A stretch of 64,000 nt of DNA from an uncultured bacterium (GCA_964652195.1 CAZZBB010000076.1:16228-80227), one strand, 5' to 3'; shown: positions 25,295-44,357, counted from the stretch's first letter. The notes: a model not told the origin generated them from the sequence alone. Numbers and translations are program-made.

Positions 25295-26575
25295 ATGGAA
25301 AAGCTACCGAACATTGTTTTTATACTTGCTGATGATCACGGTTATGGTGATATCTCAGCACATAATGGACCCTCAATTCAAACACCACATATTGATAGAA
25401 TCGCAGATGAAGGCATACGACTTACACAATTCTATGCAAACTCATCTGTCTGTTCACCAAGTCGCGCATCGCTTATGACGGGTCGCTATCCGGATAGAGT
25501 TGGTGTGCCGGGGGTAATTCGAACACACCCAGAAAACAATTGGGGATATTTTCGACAGGATGCTATCACACTCCCATCAATATTAAAACAGAAAGATTAC
25601 AAAACATCTCTAATTGGTAAATGGCATCTTGGACTTGAAGATGAGAATCACCCATGTAAAAGAGGATTTGATTATTTTCACGGCTTTCTCGGTGATATGA
25701 TGGATGACTATTACACACATCTTCGCCATCAGAATAACTATATGCGTCGTGATTTTGAAACAATTGACCCAAGAGGACACGCTACCGATCTATTCTCAGA
25801 TTGGAGTGTTGAGTTTATCCAAGAACAGACACAATCTACACAACCCTTCTTTCTATATCTCGCATATAATGCACCGCACACACCGATTCAACCGCCGGAT
25901 GATTGGGTTGATAGAGTGAAGGATCGTGAACCAGATATTTCAGAACAACGGGCAAAATATATCGCTCTTGTTGAACACATGGATGCAGGTATTGGACGGG
26001 TTCTTGATTCACTTGAAAAAAACGATCAACTTTCAAATACTCTTGTGATTTATACATCTGACAACGGGGGGCAGATGGGGGTTGGAGCACATAACGGACC
26101 ACTCCGTGGGGAGAAGGGGCAGATGTATGAAGGTGGTATACGGGTGCCTACTTGTGCCATGTGGAAAGGAAATATTCCTCAAGGACATGTCTCAGATCAA
26201 GTCAGTATGATAATGGATTTTTATCCTACTCTTTGTGAAATAACAGGGATACATATAAACCATGATATTGAGGGACAGTCAATTTTGAAAACATTGCAAG
26301 GCGGAAAACAGGATCTATCCGAAAGGCTACTCTACTGGATTCGAAGAGAGGGAGGACAACAGTTCTTAGGAGATTGTCAACATGCAGTTAGACGTGGTGA
26401 TTTAAAACTGCTGCATAACAGACCCTTTGAACCACTTGAACTTTACGACTTATCAAATGATCCATTTGAAGCAACAGATACTGCCAAAACGAATACAGAT
26501 CTATTTAAAGAGATGGGGAATCTTTTTCAACAAGAAATACAGAAATCAGGGAGCATTCCTTGGCAAAAGGGATAA
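25295..26575 (+). CDS. Sulfatase (arylsulfatase A-like)
   Basis: PNIVFILADD, formylglycine motif CSPSR followed by LMTGRY, GKWHLG, YNAPH, SDNG, YEGGIRVP. Confidence 0.95.
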   Translation: MEKLPNIVFILADDHGYGDISAHNGPSIQTPHIDRIADEGIRLTQFYANSSVCSPSRASLMTGRYPDRVGVPGVIRTHPENNWGYFRQDAITLPSILKQKDYKTSLIGKWHLGLEDENHPCKRGFDYFHGFLGDMMDDYYTHLRHQNNYMRRDFETIDPRGHATDLFSDWSVEFIQEQTQSTQPFFLYLAYNAPHTPIQPPDDWVDRVKDREPDISEQRAKYIALVEHMDAGIGRVLDSLEKNDQLSNTLVIYTSDNGGQMGVGAHNGPLRGEKGQMYEGGIRVPTCAMWKGNIPQGHVSDQVSMIMDFYPTLCEITGIHINHDIEGQSILKTLQGGKQDLSERLLYWIRREGGQQFLGDCQHAVRRGDLKLLHNRPFEPLELYDLSNDPFEATDTAKTNTDLFKEMGNLFQQEIQKSGSIPWQKG

Positions 26576-26726
26576 TCAATTTCTATATTTAAAGGTTTTT
26601 ACAATTTTGGTTAATTACAAATATTTTTACTTGATCCATGCTAATTGAGGAAGCATAAAATGAACGCATCTCTCATCAGAAATCTATCCTTAGAAATTAC
26701 TATCTTTTGGATATAAAATGACTCTT

Positions 26727-26761
26727 TAACGTTGGTGTATACTATGTATACACCAACGTTA
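26727..26761. promoter_or_regulatory. Perfect 16-bp inverted repeat upstream of the grpE-hsp70 promoter (operator or terminator)
   Basis: taacgttggtgtatac-tat-gtatacaccaacgtta, ending 11 nt before the -35 box. Confidence 0.6.
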
Positions 26762-26772
26762 TTTCGTTAACA

Positions 26773-26801
26773 TTGACATGCCGTAAAATCCGTTGTATAA
26801 T
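26773..26801 (+). promoter_or_regulatory. Consensus sigma70 promoter of the Hsp70/J-like array locus
   Basis: TTGACA (26773-26778), 17-nt spacer, TATAAT (26796-26801). Confidence 0.8.
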
Positions 26802-26865
26802 CAAACAAAAACAATTTGAATGTATAATAGTCATTCCTACATCATAGGTATGAGAGGATTCAGTT

Positions 26866-27582
26866 TTGAGCAGTGAAATGAATAACGATCTTGATGCAAA
26901 ATTAAAAAAAATCTTGGATAGTCAGACAAACTTAGATACGGAAAATCCTGATGACACAGTAGATACTGTTGGAGATACCCCAATGGAGGACATGGAATTA
27001 CATCAGATAAATACACTTACTGAGATTAACCAGTCTTTGACGGTATTACTCGAATTATTTGAAAAACACATATCTGGAAATCAGAATCAAGTCCAGATGT
27101 TTGATAAAATGTATGCCGAAATGAAGGACTATAAAGAGAGTTTTCTACTTGAAGTACTTCATAAACCGGTTATCCATAACTTAATTCAACTCTACGATAG
27201 TTTTATATCACTTGAATCTCAACTTACTAACCTTATTGATGAGAATAATGATAACACACTATTAAATGAGTTGAGGCAATATAGTAGTAATTTACAGAAT
27301 TTTCGTTTTGAACTTGAAGAAGTTTTATACCGCATGGATGTAACACCCTATCAGAATTCACCAGATACATTGGATAGGCAGTTACATAAGACACGGAAAG
27401 TTATATCTACAGACGATCCAAATATGGATCAGAAAGTAGCAGAAGTGCATAAAATCGGATTCTATTGGCGTGAGAAAGTGTTTCGTCCGGAAGATGTAAC
27501 CATTTATCGTTATATGGCCTCCACAGAAAAATCTGAAAATGGTAATACTAAACATTCTTCAGATAAACAAAGGGGAGATTAA
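26866..27582 (+). CDS. grpE: GrpE-like nucleotide exchange factor
   Basis: Acidic N-terminal tail, long coiled coil, and C-terminal beta domain ...DQKVAEVHKIGFYWREKVFRPEDVTIY; its stop directly abuts the Hsp70 ATG. Confidence 0.8.
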   Translation: MSSEMNNDLDAKLKKILDSQTNLDTENPDDTVDTVGDTPMEDMELHQINTLTEINQSLTVLLELFEKHISGNQNQVQMFDKMYAEMKDYKESFLLEVLHKPVIHNLIQLYDSFISLESQLTNLIDENNDNTLLNELRQYSSNLQNFRFELEEVLYRMDVTPYQNSPDTLDRQLHKTRKVISTDDPNMDQKVAEVHKIGFYWREKVFRPEDVTIYRYMASTEKSENGNTKHSSDKQRGD

Positions 27583-29178
27583 ATGGGTAAAGTTGTCGGA
27601 ATAGATTTAGGTACGACATTTTCTGCGATAGCACATATAAATGAGCATGGACAACCTGAAATTATCCCCAATTTGGAGAGTGACCGAATTACACCATCGG
27701 TCGTAATGTTTGAAGACAATCTTGTAACCGTTGGAAAAATAGCTAAGCAGAATGCCAGAGCTGTCCCTGAACAAATTGTTGAGTTTATCAAAAGGGAGAT
27801 GGGTAAATCAAGAACGAATTTCTTCCGTACATTCGATGAAAAAGACTATTCCCCTGAAGAACTATCTGCGCTCATTATGAGGAAACTGAAACAAGATGCT
27901 GAGATCTATCTGAATGAAGAGGTGACTGATGCTGTAATCACTGTTCCTGCGTATTTTCACGACGCAGAAAGAGAAGCTACGCGAAATGCAGGGAAAATTG
28001 CTGGTTTTAATGTGCTTCAAGTCCTAAACGAACCGACCGCAGCTGCACTCGCTTATGGAATCGATCAACTTGGTAATAACCAAAATGTATTTGTATTTGA
28101 CCTTGGTGGTGGAACATTTGATGTGACAATTATGCAGGTCTCAGAATCTGAAATAAAAATGTTAGCAACAAATGGGGACCATCGGTTAGGGGGCAAAGAT
28201 TGGGACGACAAAATCATTACCTATGTTGCTGAGATGTTTGAGATAGAACATGGAGAGAATCCTCTGGATGATCTTCATACATATCAAGACCTTCAACTGG
28301 ATGCAATTGGAGCCAAAGAATCCTTATCTCAACGACAAAGAGCATTAATTGTATGTGGATATAACGGGAAGACAACCCGTGTTGAATTACTACGCGAGAA
28401 ATTTGAAGAACTTACGACAGATCTACTTGAAAGATGTCGAACTTTGTGTGAGTTAGTATTATCAGAGGCAGAAATGTCTTGGACAGATATTGACAAGATC
28501 TTATTGGTTGGGGGATCGACACGGATGCCTATGGTACAGGAAATGATCCGGTCAATAAGCGGTAAAGAGATTAATCCACATGAAGTTAATCCTGATGAGG
28601 TCGTCGCATTAGGAGCGGCTATTCAAGGAACTCTTCGTCAAATTACAGACGATACTGTTGAAACACCGGAAATGCCTGAAGCTGTTATAGAACGGTTTAT
28701 TGGACCGGATGGAGTACCAAAAGTCACTGTAACGGACGGTGCTACACATAATCTGGGTCTTGTTGTCCTCAATTCACAACGCGATTATATTATCCATGTT
28801 ATGATCCCAAAAATGACTGCTGTTCCGTGTGAAATTGCTGATCAATTCTTGACTGTTGACGAAAACCAACCAACTGTGCTAATTGAGGTAGTGCAAGGAC
28901 TTGAACAGGATCAACTTAGGGATCAAATACCATTTTTTGATGAATATAAGCTGGGAGAATGCACACTTGAATTACCTAACGGATTACCACAAGGATCTCC
29001 AATTGAGGTAAACTATAAATATAATTTAGACCAAAATCTCGAGGTAACAGCAAAATCATTGACAGATGACGGTCCTACAGCAGTTTTTGATATCTTTTCA
29101 ATAATTGATAGACCTACACTTAATGAAGAAGAAGTTTCCAAAGCACAAACAGATCTGCAAGAACTGACAGTTGAATAA
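27583..29178 (+). CDS. Non-canonical Hsp70 (DnaK-like) protein lacking the C-terminal lid
   Basis: GIDLGTTFS, TVPAYF, NEPTAAALAYG, VFDLGGGTFD, LVGGSTRMP, NPDEVVALGAAIQ; beta substrate-binding domain present; only 531 aa. Confidence 0.93.
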   Translation: MGKVVGIDLGTTFSAIAHINEHGQPEIIPNLESDRITPSVVMFEDNLVTVGKIAKQNARAVPEQIVEFIKREMGKSRTNFFRTFDEKDYSPEELSALIMRKLKQDAEIYLNEEVTDAVITVPAYFHDAEREATRNAGKIAGFNVLQVLNEPTAAALAYGIDQLGNNQNVFVFDLGGGTFDVTIMQVSESEIKMLATNGDHRLGGKDWDDKIITYVAEMFEIEHGENPLDDLHTYQDLQLDAIGAKESLSQRQRALIVCGYNGKTTRVELLREKFEELTTDLLERCRTLCELVLSEAEMSWTDIDKILLVGGSTRMPMVQEMIRSISGKEINPHEVNPDEVVALGAAIQGTLRQITDDTVETPEMPEAVIERFIGPDGVPKVTVTDGATHNLGLVVLNSQRDYIIHVMIPKMTAVPCEIADQFLTVDENQPTVLIEVVQGLEQDQLRDQIPFFDEYKLGECTLELPNGLPQGSPIEVNYKYNLDQNLEVTAKSLTDDGPTAVFDIFSIIDRPTLNEEEVSKAQTDLQELTVE

Positions 29179-29253
29179 ATTCCTACACAAATTTACATTT
29201 TCTTAGATAATATCATTAGCATTTCTACCTAAGGTTAACAACAGGATTTACGA

Positions 29254-30648
29254 ATGTCTGATCGAGATGAATTTATATCCTTTGTAACAGATTTTAAAGT
29301 TGTCTCACCTACTATTTCGGACGAACAACGTAAAGGTCTTTTACGGAGAGCTGTACATCAACACGGTCTTACAGTTGAAGATGCTAATGGAATATTGGAT
29401 AATACGGGTCTTGTAATTGGTGAACAACAGGTAAATTATTTTGAAGTATTAGGTATACTGCTTGAAGAGACTAAAAATAAGACCGAATCAGAGATTTCAG
29501 ATCATGTTGTTTCCATACACAAGAGACTATATAGTAAATCCTTGAATTCAGGGGGTCGTCCACGGCATGATGGAAGGTCAGAAGAACAGTGGCGAAGATT
29601 ATTGAATCAAGCTCGTGATGTCCTTATTGATCCCATTAAGAGGCAAGGATATATTGATGAGCTAAATACTTACGATAATGAAGATACTTACGATAATGAA
29701 GAGTTTCATGATGATATATCAATTAAGCCAACCACTTCTATAAGCAATTTATCATTTAATGTTGATGAAAGGGTTATACCAGCACACAAAAAAGTTGTAT
29801 TTACTGTAGTATTTTCACCTGATGGCACATGTGTTGCCAGTGGTAGTGCTGACAAATCAATATGTATCTGGGATATTCAGGCTGAAAAGCAGAAACATAT
29901 TCTTAATGGTCATAATGATACAGTAACATCTGTTAGGTATTCACCAGACGGTAAAACCATAGCAAGCGGGAGTTTTGACGGAACAGTATGTTTATGGAAT
30001 GCTAAATCCGGAGAGTTGAAAAAACGATTAACTGGACAAAAAGATAAGATTAGTTCCGTGGCTTATTCACCTGATGGAAAAACAATAGCAAGTGGAAGTT
30101 ATAATGGAACTATTCAATTATACAATGCTGAGACTGGTGAACCAAAAATCCTCCTCAAAGGACATAGAAATTGGGTTAGTTCAGTTGTATACTCACCTGA
30201 TGGGAAAACAGTTGCATGTGCAAGTTATGACGGGAAGGTCTATTTGTGGAATACTGAAACAGGCGTAAATATACATGTCCTAACAGGTCATAAATTTAGT
30301 GTTATCGCAGTAACCTATTCACCTAATTCTGATACAATCATAAGTACAGATCTGCAAGGAACAATTCTTGCCTGGAATGCAGTTTCTGGCGAACCAAGAA
30401 TCCTACCTACGGGTTTTATGTCCTGGATTAGTTCAGTAGCATATTCCCCGGATGCAACTATTCTCACTTGTGGTAGTTTTCATGGATCAATCACTTTATG
30501 GAATACAGATACATGGGAGGAATTAAAAACTATTAAGGGGCATACGTCAACTGTAAAAGCACTATCCTACTCTCCAGATGGAAGGATTCTGGCAAGCTGC
30601 GGTGGAGATGGTAATGTACGTCTTTGGAGTTCATCATTATACGAATAA
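29254..30648 (+). CDS. J-like N-terminal module fused to WD40 beta-propeller (array member 1)
   Basis: N-terminal ...VNYFEVLG...GGRPRHDGRSEEQWRRLLNQARDVLIDPIKR; seven WD40 repeats (GH...V.SV.YSPDG...ASGS.DG.V.LW). Confidence 0.9.
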   Translation: MSDRDEFISFVTDFKVVSPTISDEQRKGLLRRAVHQHGLTVEDANGILDNTGLVIGEQQVNYFEVLGILLEETKNKTESEISDHVVSIHKRLYSKSLNSGGRPRHDGRSEEQWRRLLNQARDVLIDPIKRQGYIDELNTYDNEDTYDNEEFHDDISIKPTTSISNLSFNVDERVIPAHKKVVFTVVFSPDGTCVASGSADKSICIWDIQAEKQKHILNGHNDTVTSVRYSPDGKTIASGSFDGTVCLWNAKSGELKKRLTGQKDKISSVAYSPDGKTIASGSYNGTIQLYNAETGEPKILLKGHRNWVSSVVYSPDGKTVACASYDGKVYLWNTETGVNIHVLTGHKFSVIAVTYSPNSDTIISTDLQGTILAWNAVSGEPRILPTGFMSWISSVAYSPDATILTCGSFHGSITLWNTDTWEELKTIKGHTSTVKALSYSPDGRILASCGGDGNVRLWSSSLYE

Positions 30649-30734
30649 TACCTACTCAAGCTGCCGATCATTAATGATAGAATACTACAACTGAATTATA
30701 CAGGTTCATATAGAATTTCAAATTGGTTTAATTA

Positions 30735-31985
30735 ATGTCCAAGCGCGATGAATTCTTTGCTTTTATCAATACTCTCAAAGATGCATCACCTACGATTACT
30801 GACGAACAGCGTAAAGGTTTTCTCAGGCTTGCAGTTGAAAAATATGGTTTAACTGTTGATGAAGCAACATCTATATTCAATGCATCGGGTATAATAATTG
30901 GTGAAATAGTTGATCTATTTGAAATCTTTGGATTAACTGGCATAGAGATTAAGAGATATAATCAATCTGAAATTGTCGATCGCGTTGAGTCAATCCATAG
31001 TAAACTATATAGTGAATCTTTAAAGTCCGGGGGTCGTCCGCGTCCAGATGGTAGGTCAGAGGAACAGTGGCGAAGATTGTTAAATCAAGCACGAGACACA
31101 CTAACTGACCCGAAAAAACGTCACGAATATCTTGCAACACTTCAATATAAAGAACCATTAACTGAAACAATTTCAGGAACTACAAGCCTTGAGAATATGT
31201 CACTTATTCCTGAAGGTGAGTTTGAAATGGGTAGCAACGATGACGAGACTTTTGATGATGAACATCCGGTTCATACCGTTTTTCTAAACGAATTCTATAT
31301 TGACCAATATCCTGTAACCAATGCACAATACAAGGCATTCCTTGATGCGAATCCACAGTGGAATAAGCATGAAATCCCAAAAAAGTATTGTGATGTTGAC
31401 TATCTTAAGCATTGGCGTAGGAGTAGTTTTCCAAGTGGGGAAGCAGATTATCCTATTGTCAATGTAAGTTGGTATGCTGCTATGGCTTATGCTCAATGGC
31501 GAGGTAAACGTCTTCCCACTGAAGCTGAATGGGAAAAAGCTGCACGTGGTGGTCTTGCCGGCAAACAATACCCATATGGTAATTCATTAGATTCTACTCA
31601 AGCGAATTATGACTGGAATGAGGGACATGCCACACCCGTTGCCAAATATCCTTCTAATGGATATGAACTTTATGACATGTGTGGCAATGTTTGGGAATGG
31701 TGTCTTGATAGATATGAGAAACATTATTATAGAAACTCACCGACTCGTAACCCTATTGCTGGTGATGATACTATTGACTGGTTGAATGACAACTTCTTAG
31801 ATATTAAATCCAATCGTGTATTACGTGGTGGTTCATGGCGGATACCTGCCTCATTAGTGAGAACAGCAAAACGAAATGCAGAATCTCCCATGTTTTCACT
31901 GAATGTGATTGGGTTTCGTTGTGTAATTCAAGCTTTACCGACAGATAATTCTCATTTCCCTCCTACCGTAGGATATGCTGCCTAA
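30735..31985 (+). CDS. J-like module plus FGE-sulfatase/SUMF1-fold domain (array member 2)
   Basis: Shared N-terminal module; [65 protein letters not shown]. Confidence 0.9.
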   Translation: MSKRDEFFAFINTLKDASPTITDEQRKGFLRLAVEKYGLTVDEATSIFNASGIIIGEIVDLFEIFGLTGIEIKRYNQSEIVDRVESIHSKLYSESLKSGGRPRPDGRSEEQWRRLLNQARDTLTDPKKRHEYLATLQYKEPLTETISGTTSLENMSLIPEGEFEMGSNDDETFDDEHPVHTVFLNEFYIDQYPVTNAQYKAFLDANPQWNKHEIPKKYCDVDYLKHWRRSSFPSGEADYPIVNVSWYAAMAYAQWRGKRLPTEAEWEKAARGGLAGKQYPYGNSLDSTQANYDWNEGHATPVAKYPSNGYELYDMCGNVWEWCLDRYEKHYYRNSPTRNPIAGDDTIDWLNDNFLDIKSNRVLRGGSWRIPASLVRTAKRNAESPMFSLNVIGFRCVIQALPTDNSHFPPTVGYAA

Positions 31986-32007
31986 CCTTCTCTATCGAAA
32001 TTAGACT

Positions 32008-33393
32008 ATGCTTAAACGTAATGAGTATATAGACTTTATAAATGAATTTAAAACTGTATCTCCAACTATCACAGATGAACAAAGGATTGGTCTTCTGCGA
32101 CGAGGTGTTCAACAACATGGTCTATCAATTTCTGAGGCAGAGAACATAATTCTATCATCAGGATTAATTATCGGTGAACAGATAGATTATTTTCAAATAT
32201 TAGGATTATCCATAGAAGATATACAGAATCAAAACGAGGACTTAATTACAACAGAAGTTGATACGATACACAGAAAACTATATAACGCCTCCTTAAAAGC
32301 AGGAGGTCGTATACGATCAGATGGTAGGACTGAGGAACAGTGGCGTATCATACTAAATGAAGCACGGGATACTCTCAAGAATGTTGAAAAACGAAAATCT
32401 CATATTGAAATACTACAAACCGATGTTCTACCCCCGATTGAAATCCTATCTGAAGATACTCCTATACAAGAAACTGAAACAACACAAGAAACAATTCCAA
32501 CACAACCGACAGAACAGTCAAGTGTGTTGCCATCAGTAGAAGTTCTTCCTGAAGATGAATCTATTCAAAGAACTGATACTCTTGAAGAATCCATTTCATC
32601 ACAACCCGTAGTAGAAGATGGTATGGCACTCATTCCTGCCGGAGAATTTCAAATGGGGAGTAACGATATTGAGGCTTACAATGACGAAAAGCCTATACAT
32701 ACTGTATACATAGATACATTCTATATTGATCAATATCCTGTCACGAATGTAGAATATAAAGAGTTTATTGATGCCAATCCTGAATGGCATAAACCCAAAA
32801 AATGGTATGATAATACTGGAAATATTGATGGTATTCACAAGAAATATCATGACGGTGATTACCTAAAGACTTGGAAAAGAAACAACTTTCCAAAAAATGA
32901 AGTTCATCATCCTGTAACTTGGGTGAGTTGGTATGCTGCAATGGCTTACGCACAATGGAAAGGTAAACGACTACCAACCGAAGCTGAATGGGAAAAAGCT
33001 GCACGAGGTGGTTTGACAGGACAAAAATATCCATGGGGAAATACCATAAGCCTGAATCGTCTAAACTACGATCTATATATCAGTAATACAACCGAAGTAG
33101 GTCAATATCCTGAAAATGGTTATGGTATTTATGATATGGCGGGAAATGTATTTGAATGGTGTATAGATGTATGGAATGAAAACTACTATATTAATTCTCC
33201 ATACAATAATCCTGTCGCTGATGGATATTTAGCAGATATTTTAGCTGATTTCACAAGTGTAATGACACCGAGAGTGGTGCGTGGTGGATCTTCTGTAAGT
33301 ACTCCGAGAAACACACGGGTTTCATATCGACATAGAAATACACCTAAATTGACATGTTTTAGTATTGGATTCCGTTGTGTAAGATCTAAATAA
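32008..33393 (+). CDS. J-like module plus FGE-sulfatase-fold domain (array member 3)
   Basis: Same architecture; long E/T/Q/P-rich linker. Confidence 0.9.
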   Translation: MLKRNEYIDFINEFKTVSPTITDEQRIGLLRRGVQQHGLSISEAENIILSSGLIIGEQIDYFQILGLSIEDIQNQNEDLITTEVDTIHRKLYNASLKAGGRIRSDGRTEEQWRIILNEARDTLKNVEKRKSHIEILQTDVLPPIEILSEDTPIQETETTQETIPTQPTEQSSVLPSVEVLPEDESIQRTDTLEESISSQPVVEDGMALIPAGEFQMGSNDIEAYNDEKPIHTVYIDTFYIDQYPVTNVEYKEFIDANPEWHKPKKWYDNTGNIDGIHKKYHDGDYLKTWKRNNFPKNEVHHPVTWVSWYAAMAYAQWKGKRLPTEAEWEKAARGGLTGQKYPWGNTISLNRLNYDLYISNTTEVGQYPENGYGIYDMAGNVFEWCIDVWNENYYINSPYNNPVADGYLADILADFTSVMTPRVVRGGSSVSTPRNTRVSYRHRNTPKLTCFSIGFRCVRSK

Positions 33394-33422
33394 CCTACAT
33401 TTTTTATATAATTATTCTATCT

Positions 33423-34595
33423 ATGGCTGAAAATAAAGAATTCATCGCATTTGTAAATAGATTAAAAACACTATCACCAACCATAACCGAAGAGCAGCGT
33501 ATTGGTCTTCTGCGGCAAGGTGTGCAAGAATATAGCCTCACTACAGATGAAGCGGATAATATTCTGAAAACATCAGGATTAATTGTTGGAGAACAAGATA
33601 GTTATTTTGATGTCTTAGGAATCTCAATTGAAGAACTAGAAAATCTTAGTGACGCTGATATCCTTGCACATGTTGAATCTTCCCACGCCAAACTTTACCG
33701 AGAATCATTGAATGCAGGGGGTCGTCCAAGAACCGATGGTAGGACAGAAGAAGAGTGGCGGACACTTCTAAATCAAGCTCGAGATACATTAATAGATTCT
33801 GATATACGACGATTACACTATACAAATTTACAACATGCAGAAACTTCTTTAGATGATGGGATAACACATCAAAGTTCTGAAAATATGGTGTTAATCCCAG
33901 AAGGAGAGTTTCAGAATGAGTATATTGATGCATTCTATATAGACTCATATCCGGTTACGAATCTACAGTACAAGTTATTCCTGGATGCAAACCGTCAGTG
34001 GAAGATTCCTAAACTAATTGATGTTTTTAGGATGGGGAAATTTAGAGATGGAGACTATTTGAAGACTTGGGTAAGGAACAAATTTCCACCTGGGAAAGAA
34101 GATCATCCTGTAACTTGGGTGAGTTGGTATGCAGCAATGGCATACGCTCAATGGTTAGGTAAAAGATTACCCACAGAAGCAGAATGGGAAATAGCGGCAC
34201 GTGGAGGTTTAATAGAGAAAAAATTTCCATGGGGGAATTCGGTTGATCATTCTTTAGCAAATTATAATAAATACATAGGTGAGACAACTCCTATTGGTAA
34301 ATATCCTGCTAACAATTATGATGTATATGATATGGTTGGGAATGTATCTGAGTGGTGTTTAGATGAATGGGATAGAGACGTAAATCAATCTTCCTTTCGA
34401 ATAAATCCAGTTGAAGAAGAGAGTATTGAGGATATAATAGAGAATTATTCCGAATCGAGAAAGAAACGTGTATTAAAAGGTAGTTCATGGTATTCTTCCA
34501 CTAAAGACCTACAGATATCCTACAGATACGGATTAGCACCAAGGAAAACAGTAAGCGTAGTAGGATTTCGCTGTGTGAAACCAATTAATAAGTAA
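33423..34595 (+). CDS. J-like module plus FGE-sulfatase-fold domain (array member 4)
   Basis: Same architecture; lacks the MGS...HxV hairpin found in all siblings. Confidence 0.88.
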   Translation: MAENKEFIAFVNRLKTLSPTITEEQRIGLLRQGVQEYSLTTDEADNILKTSGLIVGEQDSYFDVLGISIEELENLSDADILAHVESSHAKLYRESLNAGGRPRTDGRTEEEWRTLLNQARDTLIDSDIRRLHYTNLQHAETSLDDGITHQSSENMVLIPEGEFQNEYIDAFYIDSYPVTNLQYKLFLDANRQWKIPKLIDVFRMGKFRDGDYLKTWVRNKFPPGKEDHPVTWVSWYAAMAYAQWLGKRLPTEAEWEIAARGGLIEKKFPWGNSVDHSLANYNKYIGETTPIGKYPANNYDVYDMVGNVSEWCLDEWDRDVNQSSFRINPVEEESIEDIIENYSESRKKRVLKGSSWYSSTKDLQISYRYGLAPRKTVSVVGFRCVKPINK

Positions 34596-34637
34596 ACCGA
34601 ATATTTCTCTTGTTAAAGACCTATTTGAGGATCAAGC

Positions 34638-35930
34638 ATGCGTGAATATGAAGAATTTATCTCTGTCATTAATACACTCAAAGTACTATCAACGATCATC
34701 ACTGAAGCACAACGTATTGGTCTTTTGCAACAAGGTGTGCAAGAATTTGGTCTCACTACAGATGAAGCGGATAATATTCTGAATACATCAGGATTAGTTG
34801 TTGGAGAACAAGATAGTTATTTTGATGTCTTAGGAATATCAATTGAAGAACTTGAAAAACTCAGTGAAGCTGATATCCTTGCACATGTTGAATCTGTCCA
34901 CGACAAACTTTACCGAACATCTTTGAATGCAGGGGGTCGTCCGCGGTCTGATGGCAGATCAGAAGTAGAGTGGCGAAACCTTTTGAATCAAGCAAAAGAT
35001 ACAATAACAGATCCCCTAAAAAGAAGTGAATATATTTCCATTCTACAACAGGTAAAAATACAGGATTTCAGTGCTGAACCATCACAGGAATTGGATTCAT
35101 CCGATGCAAACACAAATAGACCTCATGCCTTAAGTAATACATTTGTACCAGATGGTATTGATGTGCCTGATGACATGGTATATATACCAGCAGGTGAATT
35201 TCAAATGGGGAGTGAACATGCAGATGCTGAGGAGGATGAACAGCCTATTCACACAGTTTTTGTTAATGCATTTCTTATGGATAAAAATCCTGTGACAAAT
35301 AGAGAATTTAGAGAATTTCTACATACTAATCCTGAGTGGCAGAAACCTGATCATCTTAATTATCATATCATTTCGAATTTTCATGATGGTTCATATTTGA
35401 AGGATTGGCAGATGAATATGTATCCACCTGGAAAACGTGATCATCCAGTGACGCAGGTGAGTTGGTTTGCTGCGATGGCGTATGCCAGATCAGTAGGTAA
35501 GCGTCTGCCGACTGAAGCAGAATGGGAAAGAGCAGCACGCGGCGGCTTGGATGGTAAACACTATTCTTGGAGTAATGTTGAAGATTTCGTTAATGCAGAT
35601 GAGTATTTAAATGCTGAAGATACTTTACCAATCGGTCTTACACCTGCCAATAACTATGGACTTTATGATATGTGTGGCAATGTATGGGAATGGTGTCTTG
35701 ATGCATATAATGAGGATTTCTATAACGAGGCACCATAGAATAACCCATTTTATGGACCTAATAGCAAAGAATGGGTAGTAGAAAACTTTAGCCGTATAAC
35801 AATCGAACGTGTATTACGCGGTGGTCCTTGGGGTTTTGATGCTTTAGGGGCACGAGTTTCACAACGACTCAGTAGTGCCCCAACCGATACTTTACCAACT
35901 TACAGTTTTCGTTGTATAAAGTATATTTGA
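34638..35930 (+). pseudogene. J-like module plus FGE-sulfatase-fold domain (array member 5) with one in-frame TAG
   Basis: ORF stops at TAG 35736-35738, but the same frame continues NNPFYGPNSKEWVVENFSRITIERVLRGGPW...YSFRCIKYI to TGA at 35930. Confidence 0.85.
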
Positions 35931-35995
35931 TGGGAATGGTCTTATCAATTGAATTATTTCATAGAATACTGAAAATATAAATCGACTTATTAAAA

Positions 35996-37276
35996 ATGGC
36001 AAAACGTGAAGAATTCATTCAGCTTATCAACACTTTTAAAGCGGTGTCAGCTACAATAACAAACAATCAAAGACGAGGTTTGTTGCAGCAAGCTGTACAG
36101 ATCTATGATCTCTCTATTGAAGAAGGTATAGAGATATTGGATTCATTAGGAATAGTTGTTGGGGATGAGGTAAATTATTTCGAGATATTAGGACTATCCA
36201 TTGAGGAAATACAAGGCAAGGATGACCAGACGGTTACTGATATTGTTAAAATAGCACATGATGACTTGTATAAAGTCTCCTTAACTGCTGGAGGACGGGT
36301 CAGATCAGATGGAAGGACTGAAGACCAGTGGCGAATATTACTGAATCAAGCGCGGAATATTCTGGGTGAAAAAGAAAAAAGAAACGAATACATCTCTGCT
36401 CTTCTTCAAGAAGAGTCTAAAGAATTTTCAACTCCGAATACACCTACGATTCCGAGTACCGAACCAAATTCTATTGAAATTGTATCTGAACCGACCTCTC
36501 ACATAATAACAGATCCTGACGATATAGAAATACCATCTGAAATGGTATTGATCCCTTCAGGAGTATTTATTATAGGATCTCAAAGTAAAGACATAAACGG
36601 TAGTGATTTACCACTACATAATGTGTACTTACACTCATTCCTGATTGATAAATATCCTGTAACTAATTCTGAATTCCGTGTTTTTCTCACTGAGAACGAA
36701 CAATGGCAGAAGAAATACATATCCGAAAAATATCACAATGGTAAATACCTTAGATCTTGGAACGGGAATAACTATCCAAAAAATAAAGACAATGATCCGG
36801 TTGTCGATATAAGTTGGTATGCTGCAATGGCTTATGCTCAATGGATAGAGAAACGACTTCCTACAGATATTGAATGGGAAAAAGCTGCACGTGGAGGGTT
36901 AACTGAAAAAACGTATCCCTGGGGCGATGATATTACTAACGACCTGGCGAATTACGGAATGTTTGTCGGGAATACAACCCCTGTTGGAAACTACCCTCCA
37001 AATGAGTATGGTGCGTTTGATATGGTTGGCAATGTATGGGAATGGTGTCTTAATCATTATGAACATATTGAAGCATTTAGTAAACCAAGTATATCTGTTG
37101 AACAGATGAGTAATATCTTAGATTCCTATTTAGATGTCGAAAGCAATCGTGTGTTACGTGGAGGTTCATGGGCAAGTAGTGAACGAGCTCTTTCGGTTGC
37201 ATATAGAGGTAGTGCTGCTCCTAGTTGTACATATTACAGTTACGGATTTCGATGTGTTAAGGATATTCATAGATAA
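35996..37276 (+). CDS. J-like module plus FGE-sulfatase-fold domain (array member 6)
   Basis: Same architecture; GGRVRSDGR loop; RVLRGGSW...YGFRCV. Confidence 0.9.
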   Translation: MAKREEFIQLINTFKAVSATITNNQRRGLLQQAVQIYDLSIEEGIEILDSLGIVVGDEVNYFEILGLSIEEIQGKDDQTVTDIVKIAHDDLYKVSLTAGGRVRSDGRTEDQWRILLNQARNILGEKEKRNEYISALLQEESKEFSTPNTPTIPSTEPNSIEIVSEPTSHIITDPDDIEIPSEMVLIPSGVFIIGSQSKDINGSDLPLHNVYLHSFLIDKYPVTNSEFRVFLTENEQWQKKYISEKYHNGKYLRSWNGNNYPKNKDNDPVVDISWYAAMAYAQWIEKRLPTDIEWEKAARGGLTEKTYPWGDDITNDLANYGMFVGNTTPVGNYPPNEYGAFDMVGNVWEWCLNHYEHIEAFSKPSISVEQMSNILDSYLDVESNRVLRGGSWASSERALSVAYRGSAAPSCTYYSYGFRCVKDIHR

Positions 37277-37336
37277 AATATCTTCAACTCTAATGTATAT
37301 CTAATTTTTAGAGTTCATCTCATTGGTACTGTATTA

Positions 37337-38713
37337 ATGGCAAAACGTGAAGAATTTATAGATGCAATCAATTTGTTTAGGTCTGCCTCACAATCCATAT
37401 CGGTAGAACAACGGATAGGACTTTTACAACAAGCTGTACAAGAGTATGGACTATCAATAAAAGAAGCTGATGAGATAATCAAAGAAACAGGGCTAATAGT
37501 CGGCGGGACTATTAATTACTTTAGGGTCTTAGGTTTGTCCAATCATGAATTTGAAAATCTAAATGAAACCACTATTACATCAATTATAGATGAAGCACAT
37601 AGAAAACATTATACAGAATCATTAAGAGCTGGGGGACTTCCTCGTCCTGACGGGAGAACCCAAGAACAGTGGCGAATCATCCTAAATCATGCACGATATA
37701 CTTTAATAGATCCTCATAAACGCGAAGAATATCTATCACAATTATTGAGAGAAGAAGATTCATCTGATAGTTTCATTAATGATGTTTCCAACAATAATAC
37801 CACTGATACAGAAAACTATAATCCGAATCTTGCCCAGTCAATCTCAACTGATAATAAAGAACATTTAGCGCATGCACCTTCGATTGTAGAAAATAAACAA
37901 GTATTTATTCATCCTGATGTACCTGCAAATATGGCATATATCCCTGCTGGTGACTTCAGGATGGGGAGTAATGATGAAAAAGTTGGAAACATAGAAAAAC
38001 CTGCCCATGTTGTGTATGTTGACGAGTTTATTATAGACAAGTATTTAGTTACCAATGCAGAATATAAAGAGTTTGTAGATGCTAACCCTCAATGGGCAAA
38101 GCCAACAAAATGGTATCACTTTGAGAAACAGAAGAAATCCTATATACATGAAAAATACCATGATGGAGATTATCTTAAGCATTGGAATGAGAATACATAC
38201 CCTGATAGTAAAGCAGAACATCCAGTGACATGGGTGAGTTGGTATGCAGCAATGGCGTATGCTGAATGGGTGGGTAAACGTCTCCCAACAGAAGCAGAAT
38301 GGGAAAAAGCTGCGCGCGGTGGAATAACTGGACAGAATTATCCTTGGGGAGAATCAATTGATTATACTAAGGCTAATTATAATAGCTATATTGGTGAAAC
38401 AACTTCTGTAGGTGAGTATCCAGCAAACGGATATGGAATTCATGATATGATAGGAAATGTTTGGGAATGGTGTCTTGACGAGTATCAGGAAAATTACTAT
38501 GCAAGTTCAGAACGCAAGAACCCAATTTGTGGTGTAAATACGGTTGAATCAATAGAATATAGTGATATGGATAATAGACATGCACGGGTAATGCGAGGAG
38601 GTTCTTGGCTTGATTCCTCTCAATTCGTCCGTTCTGCATCCCGTTACAGGAACACCCCTATACGTACTCTCGCAAGAATTGGGTTTCGTTGTGTAAAAAT
38701 CGTTCCTTCATAA
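37337..38713 (+). CDS. J-like module plus FGE-sulfatase-fold domain (array member 7)
   Basis: Same architecture; GGLPRPDGR loop. Confidence 0.9.
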   Translation: MAKREEFIDAINLFRSASQSISVEQRIGLLQQAVQEYGLSIKEADEIIKETGLIVGGTINYFRVLGLSNHEFENLNETTITSIIDEAHRKHYTESLRAGGLPRPDGRTQEQWRIILNHARYTLIDPHKREEYLSQLLREEDSSDSFINDVSNNNTTDTENYNPNLAQSISTDNKEHLAHAPSIVENKQVFIHPDVPANMAYIPAGDFRMGSNDEKVGNIEKPAHVVYVDEFIIDKYLVTNAEYKEFVDANPQWAKPTKWYHFEKQKKSYIHEKYHDGDYLKHWNENTYPDSKAEHPVTWVSWYAAMAYAEWVGKRLPTEAEWEKAARGGITGQNYPWGESIDYTKANYNSYIGETTSVGEYPANGYGIHDMIGNVWEWCLDEYQENYYASSERKNPICGVNTVESIEYSDMDNRHARVMRGGSWLDSSQFVRSASRYRNTPIRTLARIGFRCVKIVPS

Positions 38714-38769
38714 TCGAAGCATTATGATTTTTTCTACGACAATCTACACTAATAAAATGGTGGTTTGTT

Positions 38770-40155
38770 TTGGCTAATCGTAACGAATTTATCTCAATTG
38801 TCAACACACTTATATCCCTATCAAAATCAATTACAGATGACCAGTATAAAAGTCTTCTACAACAAGCTGTTCAGGAATATGACCTAACTCTTGATGATGC
38901 ATCGGAGATATTGACGACATATGGATTGGTTGTTGGTGAAAGTGTTAACTATTTTGAGGTATTAGGTCTATCCATTGATGAACTTACCCATCAAGATGAA
39001 ACTGAGATTGCTTCACATATTGAGATTGCACATAAGAGACATTATACAGAGTCTTTACAGGCAGGTGGACTTCCGCGATCAGATGGTAGAACACAAGAAC
39101 AGTGGCGGACATTGCTAAATGATGCATTTTATACGCTAATAGATTCCCAGAAACGAACTGAATATATAGACTCCTTAACGAAGAATAGATCCCAAGATGA
39201 AGGACAAGAAAATATAGGAGATGACCCAAAATCAGAAGAGCAAGTAATTACTACTCAGAAATCAACATCTATAAGTTTCTCTGTTCCAGAAAACATGAAT
39301 CATATCACCTCTGGAGAATTTCAGATGGGTAATCAAAACGAAAATGCAAATGATCGTGAAATTCCTGTACATTCTGTCTTTGTCGATGAGTTTTATATGG
39401 ATAAATATCCTGTGACAAATGCACAGTATAAGAGATTTGTTGATGCTAATCCGGTATGGAGTAAACCAGCAAGCAGTTTGGTTTGGCATAGAAAAAACAA
39501 ACGAATTATTACAGGTAGGATGACCCGACAAGATTACTTAAAGAATTGGAATGGAAACACTTTTCCACAAGAAATGGAAGACCATCCAGTTACTTATATT
39601 AATTGGTATGCTGCAATGGCGTATGCAAAATGGATCGGTAAACGTTTACCAACAGAAGCTGAATGGGAAAAAGCTGCACGTGGGGGGATAATAGGTCAGA
39701 ATTATCCATGGGGAAACACTTTGGATGCCGACAGAGCAAATTGTAATAATACTATTGGTGAAACCACCTCTGTTGGAAAATTTCCTCCGAATAACTACGG
39801 TTTGTATGATATGGTTGGAAATGTCTGGGAATGGTGTCTGGATGAATATCAGACTGACTACTATTCTCATTCACCGAATGAAAATCCAATTGCGGGATAT
39901 GACACTAAAGAGAAATTGTATGCTTTATGTTCTTATTATGGGAATATTGATACTGAACGTGTGTTACGAGGGGGCACTCTATTTTATTCATCTGAACCCA
40001 TTAATATCCACGTTAGATGGGGAGGTGATCCATCACTTACAAATTACTATTCTTCAGATTCATCAAAGATAGTTGCACGATATTCTTCAGGACTCATGGT
40101 AAACATTGGGTTCAGATGTGTTTGGGATGTGAATATGCAGAAACAATCTAAATAG
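38770..40155 (+). CDS. J-like module plus FGE-sulfatase-fold domain (array member 8)
   Basis: Same architecture; 18-aa insertion in the C-terminal variable segment. Confidence 0.9.
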   Translation: MANRNEFISIVNTLISLSKSITDDQYKSLLQQAVQEYDLTLDDASEILTTYGLVVGESVNYFEVLGLSIDELTHQDETEIASHIEIAHKRHYTESLQAGGLPRSDGRTQEQWRTLLNDAFYTLIDSQKRTEYIDSLTKNRSQDEGQENIGDDPKSEEQVITTQKSTSISFSVPENMNHITSGEFQMGNQNENANDREIPVHSVFVDEFYMDKYPVTNAQYKRFVDANPVWSKPASSLVWHRKNKRIITGRMTRQDYLKNWNGNTFPQEMEDHPVTYINWYAAMAYAKWIGKRLPTEAEWEKAARGGIIGQNYPWGNTLDADRANCNNTIGETTSVGKFPPNNYGLYDMVGNVWEWCLDEYQTDYYSHSPNENPIAGYDTKEKLYALCSYYGNIDTERVLRGGTLFYSSEPINIHVRWGGDPSLTNYYSSDSSKIVARYSSGLMVNIGFRCVWDVNMQKQSK

Positions 40156-40280
40156 GAGGTTTCTACTTTGATAGTAATTGGTAATGTGAGTTCATGATAA
40201 GAAATACTATACCATTTTAAATTGATAGATTTAAATTAGGACTTTCTTGTTACGAGGATTATCATATACATATTATGAGT

Positions 40281-40415
40281 CCCGGGGAATGCAATAAGGC
40301 ATTCATACCCGACGAATGCCCGGTGAATGACCTAATGTCATTCATACCTGGTGAATGCTATATAGCATTCATACCGTTGATTCCTTGATTCCTTGATTTG
40401 GTAGGGACGAAATGT
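40281..40415. repeat. Composite palindromic/octamer repeat element
   Basis: Three GAATG-loop-CATTCATACC hairpin units, TTGATTCC repeats, then CGAAATGT; same layout at 55251. Confidence 0.8.
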
Positions 40416-40504
40416 TTATAGAAAACACCAAAATTCGTGAAAACAACAAAAACATTTAGTTAACTGGCACAAGTCGTTATAGTCATCTATATAATTAATA
40501 ACTG

Positions 40505-41980
40505 GTGGTACGCATGTCAAATCGTGATGAGTTTATTGCTGTCGTAAATACACTCAAAACACTCTCTCATACAATTACAGATGAACAGAATAGGAGTTTA
40601 TTACAGCAGGCAGTCCACGATCATGGTCTCTCAGTAGAAGGCGCGATGGAGATAATCAATTCATTAGGGATAACTGTAGGGGAAAGGATAAACTACTTTG
40701 AGGTATTGGGGTTTTCTATTGAAGATTTAACTTCGCAAGATGAATCTTCTATTACTAAAAATCTTGAAAATGCTCACATAAAATACTACACCGAATCATT
40801 ACAAGCAGGTGGGTTACCCCGACAGGATGGTAGGACTCAAGAACAGTGGCGTACAATTCTAAATCAAGCCTATGATACATTGAAAGATCCAATAAAACGC
40901 AAGGAACATATTGAAACCGTACAAACTGAGTCATCTCATGAAGAAAACACATCAACTATAGTAACCGAAATATCTGAGCCTAAAGATACCTCATTACAAG
41001 TTGCAGTTCCAGAAGAAATGGTCTTAATTCCATCTGGGGATTTTCAGATGGGTAATAGTGATGAAAATGCAAATCTACGGGAAACACCAGTACATATTGT
41101 CGGAACGGATGCATTTTATATTGACAAATATCCAGTTACAAATGAACAATATAAAGCGTTTATAGATGCAAACCCATTATGGCGGAAACCATCTGATGGG
41201 ATGTGGTTAGATCTTCAAAAATGGTATGAGAAATATAAGGCGTTTATAGATGCAAACCCATTATGGCGCCCATTATGGCGGAAACCATCTGATGGAACGT
41301 GGTTAGATCTTCAAAAATGGTATGAGAAAGGGGGCGATCGGTATAATTACATATATGATAAATATCATGATGGAGAGTATCTGAGACATTGGACACACAA
41401 TAAGTTCCCTCTTGAGACAGCTGATCATCCTGTTACGAATGTAAGTTGGTATGCAGCAATGGCGTATGCACAATGGGTTGGCAAACGTCTGCCAACAGAA
41501 GCTGAGTGGGAAAAAGCTGCGCGTGGAGGGTTAAATGGTCAGAAATATCCTTGGGGTGATTTCATGAATTCAAGCATGGCAAATTGTGGTGAGAATGCAG
41601 ATAAGACCACACCTATAGGTAAGTATCCTGCAAACAATTTCGGTATTTTTGATATGGTTGGGAATATATGGGAATGGTGCCTTGATGAATATGTAATTGA
41701 TTATTATACTTCCTCTACATCTCTGAATCCTATCGCAGGTGTTGACTCAAAGAAGGACTTGGATAATTTAATTCGTAATTTTAGAGTGGTTGATAGTGAT
41801 CGTGTTTTGCGAGGTGGCACATCCTTTATTTCATCAGAACCTATCCATACTTCCGCACGATGGGGTGGAACACCTATTCTTACTGAATTTACTGCCTCCT
41901 ATATGACAAAGTATTTAGAAGCTTTTTCAATGACAATCGCTGCAAACATTGGCTTCAGATGTGTATGGGATACAACGTAA
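40505..41980 (+). CDS. J-like module plus FGE-sulfatase-fold domain (array member 9)
   Basis: Same architecture; internal 84-bp tandem duplication; 18-aa C-terminal insertion like member 8. Confidence 0.9.
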
Positions 41981-42044
41981 AACGAATCCTTAATTTTTGT
42001 TAAAACCAATTTATTAAACATTGATTTCATAACCTAAAGAGAGA

Positions 42045-44357
42045 TTGATTATGAGAAACAAAAATAATTACGTGTTATGGTATAACCAACCCGCACAAGA
42101 GTGGACGGATGCCCTACCCATTGGAAATGGACGACTTGGGGCAATGGTGTTTGGGGGAGTAGAACAGGAACGTATCCAACTCAATGAAGAAAGTCTTTGG
42201 GAAGGTAGTTTTCAGGATACAAATAATCCTAAAGCACTTGATGCACTCCCAATAGTTCAACAATTGTTGTTTGAAGACAAAAATGATGAAGCCACAAAAC
42301 TTGCTGGGGAAACGATGTTGGGGGTTCCACATCGTATAAAATCCTATCAGTCTTTAGGTGACATTTTTATTGATTTTGCCAATCACAGTAAAATTACAGA
42401 ATATAACCGAGAACTTGATTTAGTTACAGGTATAGCAAAGACAACCTATCAGGTTGGTAATGATAAGATCAACAGAGAAGTCTTCGCTACTGCTGTTGAT
42501 GATATTATCATTATCCGTATTAAATCCAATTCTGCCAATGGGGTTAATTTTGATGTCACAATGACTCGAGAACAGGACGCATTGATTGCATGCATATCAG
42601 ACAATATCCTTAGACTTGATGGAGAATGTAGTGATGGTGGTCTACGTTTTTCTGCATATCTGAAGGCAAATGTTGATGATGGAAAAATAGAATCGAATGA
42701 AGATAGAATTTCTATTCGTTCTGCAAGCAGTGTGACATTGCTACTGTCTGGGGCAACGAGCTATATCAATCAAAAAGATGCAACGGGTAATCCACATGAA
42801 TTGTGTGAAGGTTATCTTGCATCAGCAGAATACAAATCTTATGATGAATTACGTTCAGACCACATTCAGGAACATCAATCCCTATTCCAAAGAGTGGACA
42901 TTAACCTCGGTTCAAGCGATGCGGATAATCTACCTACAGATGAACGTTTAGCAAAAGTGAAGGAAGGGGCATCTGACCCAGGACTTGTTTCACTATATTT
43001 TCAGTTTGGACGTTATTTGTTAATGGGTAGTTCAAGACCTGGATGTCTCCCAGCAAACCTTCAGGGAGTTTGGAACCATCATATGAAGGCTCCTTGGAAT
43101 AGTGATTACCACACCAATATTAATTTACAAATGAATTACTGGGTTCCAGAAGTATGCAATCTTGCAGAGTGTCACAAACCACTATTTGATTATATGGATA
43201 CACTCGTTGAACCCGGAAGTGAAACAGCAAAACGGCATTATGGTGCAGGTGGTTGGGTTGTACATCACTTATCTGATATATGGGGATTTACAACCCCAGC
43301 AGATGGAATTTGGGGTATATCACCTGTGGGTGCAGCATGGTTAAGTGAACATGTTTGGGAACATTACCTATTTGGGGGTGATGAGGATTTTCTTAGAGAG
43401 CAAGGATACCCTTTAATGAAAGGTGCTGCACGGTTTATGCTTGATTTTCTAATTGAAGCACCAGAAGGAACGCCTTTTGCTGGAAAACTCGTAACGAATC
43501 CTTCCCATTCACCTGAAAACAGTTTCCAAAAAGCAGATGGTACGCGTTCACTCTTCACTTACGCCGCAACAATTGACCTTGAGATAATTCATGAACTATT
43601 TACAAATTGTATAGATTGTCTTGATGTACTTGAAATTGATGCGGATTTCCGAGAAGAATTAGTTTCATCTCTGGAGCGGTTGGCACCACTACAAATTAGT
43701 GAAAAAACAGGTAGACTGCAGGAGTGGATATATGACTATGACGAACCGGAACCAGGACATAGACATATGTCGCATATGTATGGTCTGCATCCCAGTTGTC
43801 AAATAACACTACGGGGCACTCCTGAGTTAGCAGAGGCAGCACGAAAATCTTTGGAATATCGATTACAACATGGTGGTGGACAAACAGGATGGAGTCGGGC
43901 ATGGTTGGTGAATTTCTTAGCACGACTTGAAGATGCTGAGGAAGCGTATAACCATTTACATGCACTCCTGGCAAGGTGCACCTTAACGAACCTGTTCGAT
44001 ACTCATCCTCCATTCCAGATTGATGGAAACTTTGGGGGAACTGCCGGAATTGCTGAGATGCTTATTCAAAGTCATGCCGGAGAAATTAACCTATTACCTG
44101 CACTACCAAAAGCATGGGATACGGGTTATGTGAGGGGATTACGTGCTCGAGGTGGGTTTGAAGTGGATATGGAATGGGAAAATGGTTCACTTACCAAGTC
44201 GAGTATATCTTCTCAACTTGGTAGGGAATGTACGGTTCGATCAACAGAAACTGTTTCAGTGTCGTGTGGAGGTGAAGAAATTGAAACAACTGAATCTGAT
44301 TCAGTGACAACATTCAGCACAGAAATTGGAAAAACTTATGTATTATCTACGTCATAG
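42045..44357 (+). CDS. Glycoside hydrolase family 95 (alpha-1,2-L-fucosidase-like)
   Basis: [55 protein letters not shown]. Confidence 0.93.

Follow-up and report, generated by a model that had tools for sequence, protein, structure and literature searches.

We analysed a 64,000-nucleotide stretch of DNA from an uncultured bacterium (GCA_964652195.1, CAZZBB010000076.1:16228–80227; hereafter the window, to whose whole length all coordinates refer), in which eight genes at 30735–41980 encode proteins with the fold of the formylglycine-generating enzyme (FGE). These genes belong to one cluster at 26866–41980, which runs on the + strand throughout, from a GrpE-like gene to an Hsp70 gene, a WD40 gene and the eight FGE-domain genes. 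The intergenic gaps within the cluster measure 22–86 nt, with the exception of 349 nt ahead of the last gene, and the start of the Hsp70 gene directly abuts the stop of the GrpE-like gene (27582/27583). The cluster proteins were compared with those of 56 related loci (numbered with the prefix L). The genes are listed below; loop 1 stands for the segment after the DANPxW motif and VR (variable region) for the segment between RGG and GFRC, and the products of the WD40 gene and of FGE-domain copies 1–8 are numbered as putative adaptors 0–8, on grounds given further below.

26866–27582, +: GrpE-like nucleotide-exchange factor (238 aa; E 1.8e-8 in Pfam GrpE, with a score of 34.7 bits and a cut-off of 25.8)
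27583–29178, +: divergent Hsp70, 531 aa, with a truncated lid (PF00012, E 5e-122)
29254–30648, +: adaptor 0, N-terminal module and seven-bladed WD40 propeller (WD40, E 3e-69)
30735–31985, +: adaptor 1, N-terminal module, linker and Cys-less FGE domain; loop 1 at 31362–31400, VR at 31833–31910
32008–33393, +: adaptor 2; loop 1 at 32788–32859, VR at 33289–33366
33423–34595, +: adaptor 3; loop 1 at 34002–34055, VR at 34485–34562
34638–35927, +: adaptor 4; in-frame TAG at 35736–35738, VR at 35826–35903, 3′ of the stop
35996–37276, +: adaptor 5; loop 1 at 36707–36745, VR at 37166–37243
37337–38713, +: adaptor 6; loop 1 at 38096–38170, VR at 38603–38680
38770–40155, +: adaptor 7; long 44-aa VR at 39976–40107
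40505–41980, +: adaptor 8; loop 1 at 41183–41377, long VR at 41819–41950

In the Pfam search, the FGE-sulfatase domain (PF03781) was matched in all eight co-directional open reading frames (ORFs), with E-values from 1e-50 to 1e-63, and the core motifs, including GNVWEW, were kept in the eight copies. In each copy, the FGE domain is preceded by a 140-aa N-terminal module (N-module) and then a disordered linker, the length of which ranges from 20 to 70 aa across the adaptors. In an AlphaFold2 (AF2) model of adaptor 6, the mean predicted local distance difference test (pLDDT) score was 79.7, with values below 50 in the linker (residues 141–191) and of 83–96 in the VR. The original prediction, made from the window sequence, had claimed a conserved core with two segments that are specific to each paralogue, and such an arrangement was confirmed, the identity between paralogues being approximately 21% in the VR versus 62% in the core. 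Loop 1 comprises 13, 24, 18, 18, 13, 25, 25 and 65 aa in copies 1–8, respectively; its length thus varies as claimed, with a measured range of 13–65 aa in place of the predicted 10 or so to more than 50 aa. The VR, 26 aa long in six of the eight copies and 44 aa in the other two, had been described as fully divergent, which is borne out by the low identity between paralogues and yet slightly overstated, since six scaffold positions (S1, W2, R10, R14, P19 and T22) are kept across the paralogues. By homology to FGE, the VR would occupy the position of the substrate groove of true FGEs, and the putative surface exposure of both segments rests on this homology. The earlier proposal that this C-terminal segment corresponds to the variable region of C-type lectin (CLec)-fold proteins diversified by retroelements is supported. 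In two paralogues, the groove still contains ‘R(Y/H)RNTP’, which is FGE-like.

The catalytic CxxxxC motif was found in none of the eight copies, as originally noted, and in none of the 187 family members examined. In the alignment with the FGE of T. curvata, the catalytic ‘LCHESYC’ is placed against ‘LDSSQF-’, so that its cysteines face a non-cysteine residue or a gap. Because both copper-binding cysteines are lost, the FGE domains are most likely binding modules and not enzymes, as judged from their sequences, and the earlier claim that they are non-catalytic as FGEs is supported. The public annotation differs, naming these proteins ‘formylglycine-generating enzyme family protein’ or ‘SUMF1/EgtB/PvdO family nonheme iron enzyme’. 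According to these names the genes would encode active FGEs, amplified so as to mature the large number of sulfatases in Poribacteria, and the strong PF03781 matches and the fold search, in which true FGEs were the best PDB matches of the adaptor 6 model (Foldseek E about 1e-22), point the same way. Set against this are the loss of the catalytic cysteines from all copies and relatives, scores far below every NCBIfam equivalog cut-off, the absence from the FGE proteins of a DinB-like iron domain of the EgtB/OvoA type in Pfam and NCBIfam searches, and a fusion to a J-like module with linkage to an Hsp70 gene that is foreign to FGEs. We therefore consider active enzymes to be very improbable.

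The FGEs of the SUMF1 type (T. curvata and S. coelicolor) are the closest relatives of the adaptors, with the same fold, shared core motifs and 30–32% identity (phmmer E 2e-33). The adaptors differ from them in the missing cysteines, a groove shorter by 3 aa, a cytoplasmic location, and the J-like and Hsp70 association. No signal peptides were detected in the cluster adaptors, on the basis of which the system is predicted to be cytoplasmic. Another parallel is the FGE paralogue pFGE (SUMF2; PDB 1Y4J), likewise a Cys-less FGE fold (strong structural match, E 9e-20). SUMF2 acts by binding and not by catalysis, and is a single eukaryotic protein of the endoplasmic reticulum lumen; it has no array, no J-like module and no dedicated Hsp70. 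Three further proteins (P0250, P0251 and P0226) have Cys-less FGE domains that are 57–60% identical to that of adaptor 6, behind other N-termini, among them a signal peptide with a TonB_C domain. Such non-J-like N-termini indicate that the binding module also serves in proteins that are not of the J-like family and in locations other than the cytoplasm.

The N-module is common to the eight FGE proteins and the WD40 protein, with 45–56% identity and 29 invariant columns. It comprises a small helical part followed by a J-domain-like fold at residues 58–139. This assignment of the second half comes from an AF2 model (pLDDT 83), for which the top 14 PDB matches in Foldseek were all J-domains, with probabilities of 0.85–1.0 and TM-scores on the target of 0.5–0.74. 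In profile searches, the J-like part gave weak matches to the J-domains of HscB, Zuotin and Jac1, HscB being the best, and a weak Pfam DnaJ match covered helix IV. The HPD motif was absent from all 245 N-modules. Its place in the loop is taken by an invariant GG(R/L)PRxDGR(T/S), and the GGxPRxDG loop is universal in the 245 modules.

A profile search with the N-module retrieved 130 representatives among 1.84 billion proteins; this exhaustive search was needed, as a word-index search gave 11 matches only. The fusion partners of the module were FGE (20), ANK (11), WD40, HEAT and TPR domains, a membrane-anchored domain and ZorD. A shorter relative of the module, which consists of the J-like half only and has an ‘NVPRxDG’ loop, forms the front part of other proteins with several domains. 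In four loci (L042 9953–11569, L044 9986–11590, L053 4462–6072 and L056 9983–11608), the N-module is followed by an unannotated middle domain and C-terminal transmembrane helices. In L032 and L038, ankyrin repeats come after this middle domain, which begins with ‘FKF(P/S)NG(D/A)EA’ and has no Pfam match.

The Hsp70 of the cluster scored 427 bits against the DnaK equivalog, for which the cut-off is 648, and its alignment with DnaK stops near DnaK residue 508, shortly after the β-sandwich substrate-binding domain. Judging by its sequence, it is a divergent Hsp70 and not the housekeeping DnaK. The position of DnaK R167 is occupied by Q (‘AGFNVLQVLNEPT’), and LQ replaces the (K/Q)R167 of DnaK in 33 of 35 cluster Hsp70s; the housekeeping DnaK of L010 keeps QR. 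R167 of DnaK pairs with the aspartate of the HPD motif, and canonical J-domains lacking HPD lose the stimulation of ATPase activity. With HPD and R167 both gone, the two sides of the canonical interface have changed together. We infer from these sequences a probable insulated pair of Hsp70 and J-like module, orthogonal to DnaK/DnaJ. The identity among cluster Hsp70s is 70–95% over more than 120 clusters, indicating slower evolution than that of the adaptors, and the GrpE-like gene is kept 5′ of the Hsp70 gene in many related loci.

The specialized Hsp70/J pairs HscA–HscB and HscC–DjlC keep both HPD and the R167 contact. Together with class C J-proteins, they resemble the present system in having a second, short-lid Hsp70 beside DnaK, with co-chaperones that provide client specificity. 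They differ from it in the number of co-chaperones, which here form a tandem array eight or nine adaptors long, and a GrpE-like factor of its own is unusual for such a pair.

Scanning 185,579 species genomes identified 56 loci, all in metagenome-assembled genomes of Candidatus Poribacteria. By annotation with hidden Markov models, the GrpE–Hsp70–adaptor array of these loci contains from two to at least 10 FGE adaptors, often with one or two WD40 adaptors, and the gene order of the cluster is often kept; its flanking genes are the same. The sequence of the window was recovered unchanged in unitigs of a sponge metagenome.

The original prediction made no mention of the J-like N-module or of the upstream GrpE-like and Hsp70 genes. 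This module and this gene context recast the proteins from free-standing lectin-like binders to chaperone adaptors. The FGE genes are most likely members 2–9 of a nine-adaptor array (one WD40 and eight FGE) belonging to a private Hsp70 system. With a probability of roughly 60%, we propose that the eight genes encode target-specific, non-enzymatic adaptors of this dedicated Hsp70, which form an old and fixed panel in sponge-symbiont Poribacteria. In this model, the groove of each adaptor would bind one class of cytoplasmic target, and the J-like module would attach the adaptor to the cluster Hsp70. Owing to the loss of R167, this pair would be orthogonal to DnaK and DnaJ of the housekeeping machinery. 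The target would then be held, unfolded or remodelled by the Hsp70, with the GrpE-like factor recycling the chaperone. The interaction between J-like module and Hsp70, the binding of targets by the groove and the biological role are all things we infer. As for the role, the most plausible one is that the adaptors recognize an unchanging set of proteins inside the cell, either foreign (phage) or other.

The original prediction described the VR as hypervariable, which was not borne out by comparison with orthologues. Between close orthologues, the VR was 78% identical with a ratio of non-synonymous to synonymous substitution rates (dN/dS) of 0.31, a value at odds with the neutral evolution of the segment that had been named as a sign against a binding role. 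The corresponding values were 85% and 0.16 for the core, 84% and 0.22 for the N-module, and 58% and 0.50 for loop 1. The VR of copy 1 was 88–92% identical in six distant Poribacteria genomes, compared with only about 67% for the entire protein in the same genomes. For adaptor 2, the VR identity in L001, L002 and L003 was 100%, 85% and 77%, respectively, and the least constrained member was adaptor 3, with a VR that is 58–69% identical to those of its orthologues. VR types recur across the phylum with up to 92% identity. When columns were scored as orthogroup-specific, that is, conserved within an orthogroup and different among at least four of six orthogroups, 11 of the 26 VR columns qualified, compared with at most 5% in every other region. 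Since the VR is divergent between paralogues and conserved between orthologues, the panel appears to be old and fixed and not a diversifying one; on this sequence evidence, the VRs would belong to old paralogues with different, fixed specificities.

Diversification by a diversity-generating retroelement (DGR), now or formerly, with the template repeat and the retroelement located elsewhere in the genome, would also give segments that differ from copy to copy. The divergent segment does lie at the VR position of CLec/FGE-type DGR targets (PMC7159879), and the DGR protein TvpA is a detectable relative of the FGE domains (phmmer E 1.6e-10; rank 40 in the fold search). The original prediction had allowed for past or remote DGR input and proposed a search for a reverse transcriptase (RT) and a template repeat; run on the 64 kb window and the 56 loci, this search turned up neither. 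No RVT domain was matched by Pfam in window ORFs of at least 150 aa, and an RT-motif regular-expression scan detected no RT-like ORF in the 56 related loci. Sensitive blastn of each 240-nt 3′ segment gave only weak paralogous matches in the window and only the ends of neighbouring paralogues in the 56 loci, and thus no template-like repeat. The substitutions between orthologous VRs are of an ordinary kind, and unitigs of the source metagenome, at about 40× depth, run unbroken through all eight VRs, although in such contigs rare variants are invisible. Both by sequence and by fold, moreover, true FGEs and pFGE are closer to the FGE domains than TvpA is. DGR variable proteins (TvpA, PDB 2Y3C; Mtd) share with the adaptors the superfold and the C-terminal place of the specificity segment, and differ in that the cluster has no template repeat, RT or Avd in the window and the 56 loci, its VRs being fixed. 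DGR diversification was rejected, given that neither an RT nor a template repeat lies near the locus and that the VRs are conserved between species, and the support for past or remote DGR input is lacking as well; we regard receptors of this kind as a highly unlikely explanation.

The array bears several lesions. Copy 4 has a C-to-T nonsense mutation, with TAG where its orthologues have CAG; the intact ORF ends at 35738 (34638–35738) and the frame runs on to 35927. This TAG recurs in independent sponge-metagenome unitigs (run X1) that are identical to the window there. Copy 3 is missing 16 aa, in frame, where the FGE domain begins, as seen by comparison with its orthologues. The 65-aa loop 1 of copy 8 arose from a recent in-frame tandem duplication of 84 nt (41150–41233/41234–41329), which is present in L002 and absent from L001; it was found by direct alignment and had been missed by Tandem Repeats Finder. 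In the linker of the WD40 adaptor (29666–29702), we also observed a perfect 18-nt tandem duplication of 2.1 copies, one of which is missing in the metagenome strain X25.

The arrays of L001, L002 and L003 are orthologous and collinear with that of the window, with 70–91% identity position by position, and the order is kept in more distant genomes. Among the closest genomes, an orthologue of copy 7 was found in L003 only. The first adaptor of L002 (3284–4558) is chimeric, with a front half of the WD40-adaptor type and a rear half of the copy-1 type, the WD40 domain having been lost. Contigs (runs X4 and X5) of a strain diverging by about 3.5% jump over 29501–31003 and 34778–35995; tentatively, the WD40 member and copy 4 would be missing from this strain, contigs of this kind being potentially chimeric. 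Across these arrays, copy number shifts by recombination between the conserved segments coding for the N-module. The original view of a repertoire built by duplication and divergence is consistent with these data.

These lesions, together with the different copy numbers of close strains and the variable length and dN/dS of about 0.5 of loop 1, would also fit a decaying array of redundant paralogues, drifting apart in unconstrained loops. Such drift is not expected to leave the groove under purifying selection, with a copy 1 VR of up to 92% identity in a protein of approximately 67%, nor to gather orthogroup-specific conserved positions in the VR, nor to keep the order of the array in distant genomes. 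Drift alone is therefore very improbable as an account of the array.

The main rival to the adaptor panel is a client-specific chaperone for sulfatases, in which the Cys-less FGE domains would bind the CxPxR region of unfolded sulfatases, as SUMF2 does, and pass them to the Hsp70, so that they stay unfolded until another enzyme matures them or until export. True FGEs and pFGE are the nearest relatives of the domains by sequence and fold, two paralogues retain the FGE-like groove, and sulfatase and fucosidase genes surround the locus. In related loci, the cluster is flanked by a Cys-type sulfatase gene on one side and a GH95 fucosidase gene on the other. In the window, the sulfatase gene (25295–26575) encodes a protein with the motif CSPSR and no signal peptide, predicted to be cytoplasmic, and it lies directly 5′ of the cluster in at least 14 poribacterial loci, with 77–82% identity. 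Two elements separate it from the cluster:

26727–26761, +: terminator-like hairpin with a 16-bp stem, 3′ of the upstream sulfatase gene (consensus scan)
26773–26801, +: promoter-like TTGACA-17-TATAAT, 12/12, 5′ of the GrpE-like gene (consensus match alone)

The promoter-like element is the sole 12/12 match to the sigma-70 consensus within 26400–42200 in the consensus scan, and the hairpin suggests that the cluster may be transcribed apart from the sulfatase gene. Coverage of the cluster by contigs of runs offered as RNA is no evidence of transcription. Furthermore, the target motif of sulfatases is nearly invariant, and eight different grooves would not be needed to bind it. The occurrence of the same N-module on WD40, ANK, TPR, HEAT and ZorD proteins points to general protein targeting, and synteny within one phylum may reflect mere descent. 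On balance, a sulfatase-handling role seems unlikely, while being the alternative with the most in its favour.

FGE-like, WD40 and TPR domains serve as sensors in the STAND immune receptors of bacteria (PMC13581612; PMC8195603), and such sensors also occur in the conflict systems of the Aravind type (PMC7159879). A complete Zorya type I system (ZorA, ZorB, ZorC and ZorD) was identified in L041 (2350–10414 of CBDBFT010000001.1) and also in L037; the PADLOC matches in L041 had E-values of 1e-51 for ZorA, 5e-68 for ZorB, 5e-35 for ZorC and 0 for ZorD. The nuclease-helicase ZorD of both loci carries the J-like N-module of the adaptors, about 135 aa long, at its C-terminus (residues 1133–1269), past the end of the ZorD profile match. 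The window itself has no Zorya genes, and this module is all that connects it with Zorya. Because the N-module is fused to ZorD in two genomes and the sensor types are shared with STAND receptors, an intracellular recognition or defence role of the cluster is plausible. A more specific version, innate recognition centred on Hsp70, in which a germline-encoded panel of FGE, WD40, ANK and TPR receptors, kept throughout the phylum, captures conserved phage proteins in the cytoplasm and passes them on by the HPD-less J-like module, the private Hsp70 neutralizes them and the module also wires in defence effectors such as ZorD, is possible at best and put forward tentatively. If it is true, the private Hsp70 would have the function that belongs to STAND NTPases in NLR-like receptors.

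The cluster shares with the FGS-sensor conflict systems (Kaur et al. 2020/2021) and STAND receptors described in these papers (PMC7159879, PMC8195603 and PMC13581612) a non-catalytic, cytoplasmic recognition module of the FGE fold, many paralogues per genome and an NTP-driven partner, and its sensors likewise alternate with WD40, TPR and ANK domains behind one shared N-terminal adaptor. The adaptor domain common to all members, the multiple copies and the neighbouring ATPase (here Hsp70) that characterize such systems were all found. The two differ in the NTPase, which is an Hsp70 with a GrpE-like factor and not a STAND, MoxR-vWA or GTPase protein, in the absence of a DGR association, and in the adaptor, which is J-like and not one of the described effector-associated domains (EADs) or Death-like domains. 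No STAND, MoxR-vWA or GTPase core and no TIR, caspase or nuclease effector was matched by Pfam in 26866–41980 or its flanks.

Several observations weigh against the adaptor panel as we propose it. The E-values of the J-domain fold matches of the N-module are weak (0.2–0.7), and a module lacking HPD may be a passive tether or work on a different partner. Three of the eight copies in the window have lesions or indels, and thus not every member is indispensable. As for a role against phage, the cluster contains no effector gene, PADLOC gave only noise-level matches for the cluster proteins, and purifying selection on the groove with deep orthology is unlike the usual outcome of an arms race with phage. 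The constant position between the Cys-type sulfatase and GH95 fucosidase genes could hint at a metabolic set of clients.

In full-text searches of the literature, we found no paper on an array of Hsp70, GrpE and J-like FGE proteins or on these poribacterial genes, and the cluster genes are not mentioned by Kamke et al. (2014) in their work on Poribacteria. The parts are known, namely specialized Hsp70/J pairs, Cys-less FGE domains and FGS sensors, whereas their combination was described in no paper retrieved by these searches. This combination consists of a lid-truncated, R167Q-type Hsp70, a GrpE-like factor of its own and a conserved tandem array of HPD-less, J-like FGE-fold adaptors.

The role of extra DnaK paralogues in complex bacteria is an open question (PMC13580251), and the present paralogue has its own exchange factor and nine readable adaptors, in which short and conserved specificity segments of 26–44 aa could be swapped. 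If confirmed, the GGxPRxDGR loop and the change of R167 to Q represent a natural insulated Hsp70/J pair, and the fusion to ZorD, in conjunction with the STAND sensor types, points to a possible chaperone-based branch of prokaryotic immunity. Hundreds of poribacterial genes named ‘formylglycine-generating enzyme’ or ‘nonheme iron enzyme’ have no catalytic residues; therefore, the number of ‘sulfatase maturases’ counted in the genomes of sponge symbionts is too high.

Outside the cluster, the window is ordinary chromosome, with genes for DnaE, Lon, UvrB, CTP synthase and PBP1 and for the degradation of glycans. A search of 22800–45500 with Rfam at the gathering threshold gave no match. The 349-nt gap before adaptor 8 contains three units of an intergenic repeat of the repetitive extragenic palindrome (REP) type, in which GAATGC-loop-GCATTC hairpin units are followed by ATACC; it occurs at 40285–40400, 55269–55363, 53442–53452 and, on the − strand, 61146–61156, with four units spaced by 28 nt near 55.3 kb. 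Its unitig depth in sponge metagenomes is about 18–30 times that of the flanks, indicating a high-copy element. At 2611–4890 on the − strand, a PSCyt2/PSD1 (DUF1549/DUF1553) protein is encoded amid housekeeping genes; this pair of domains is typical of Planctomycetes-like genomes.

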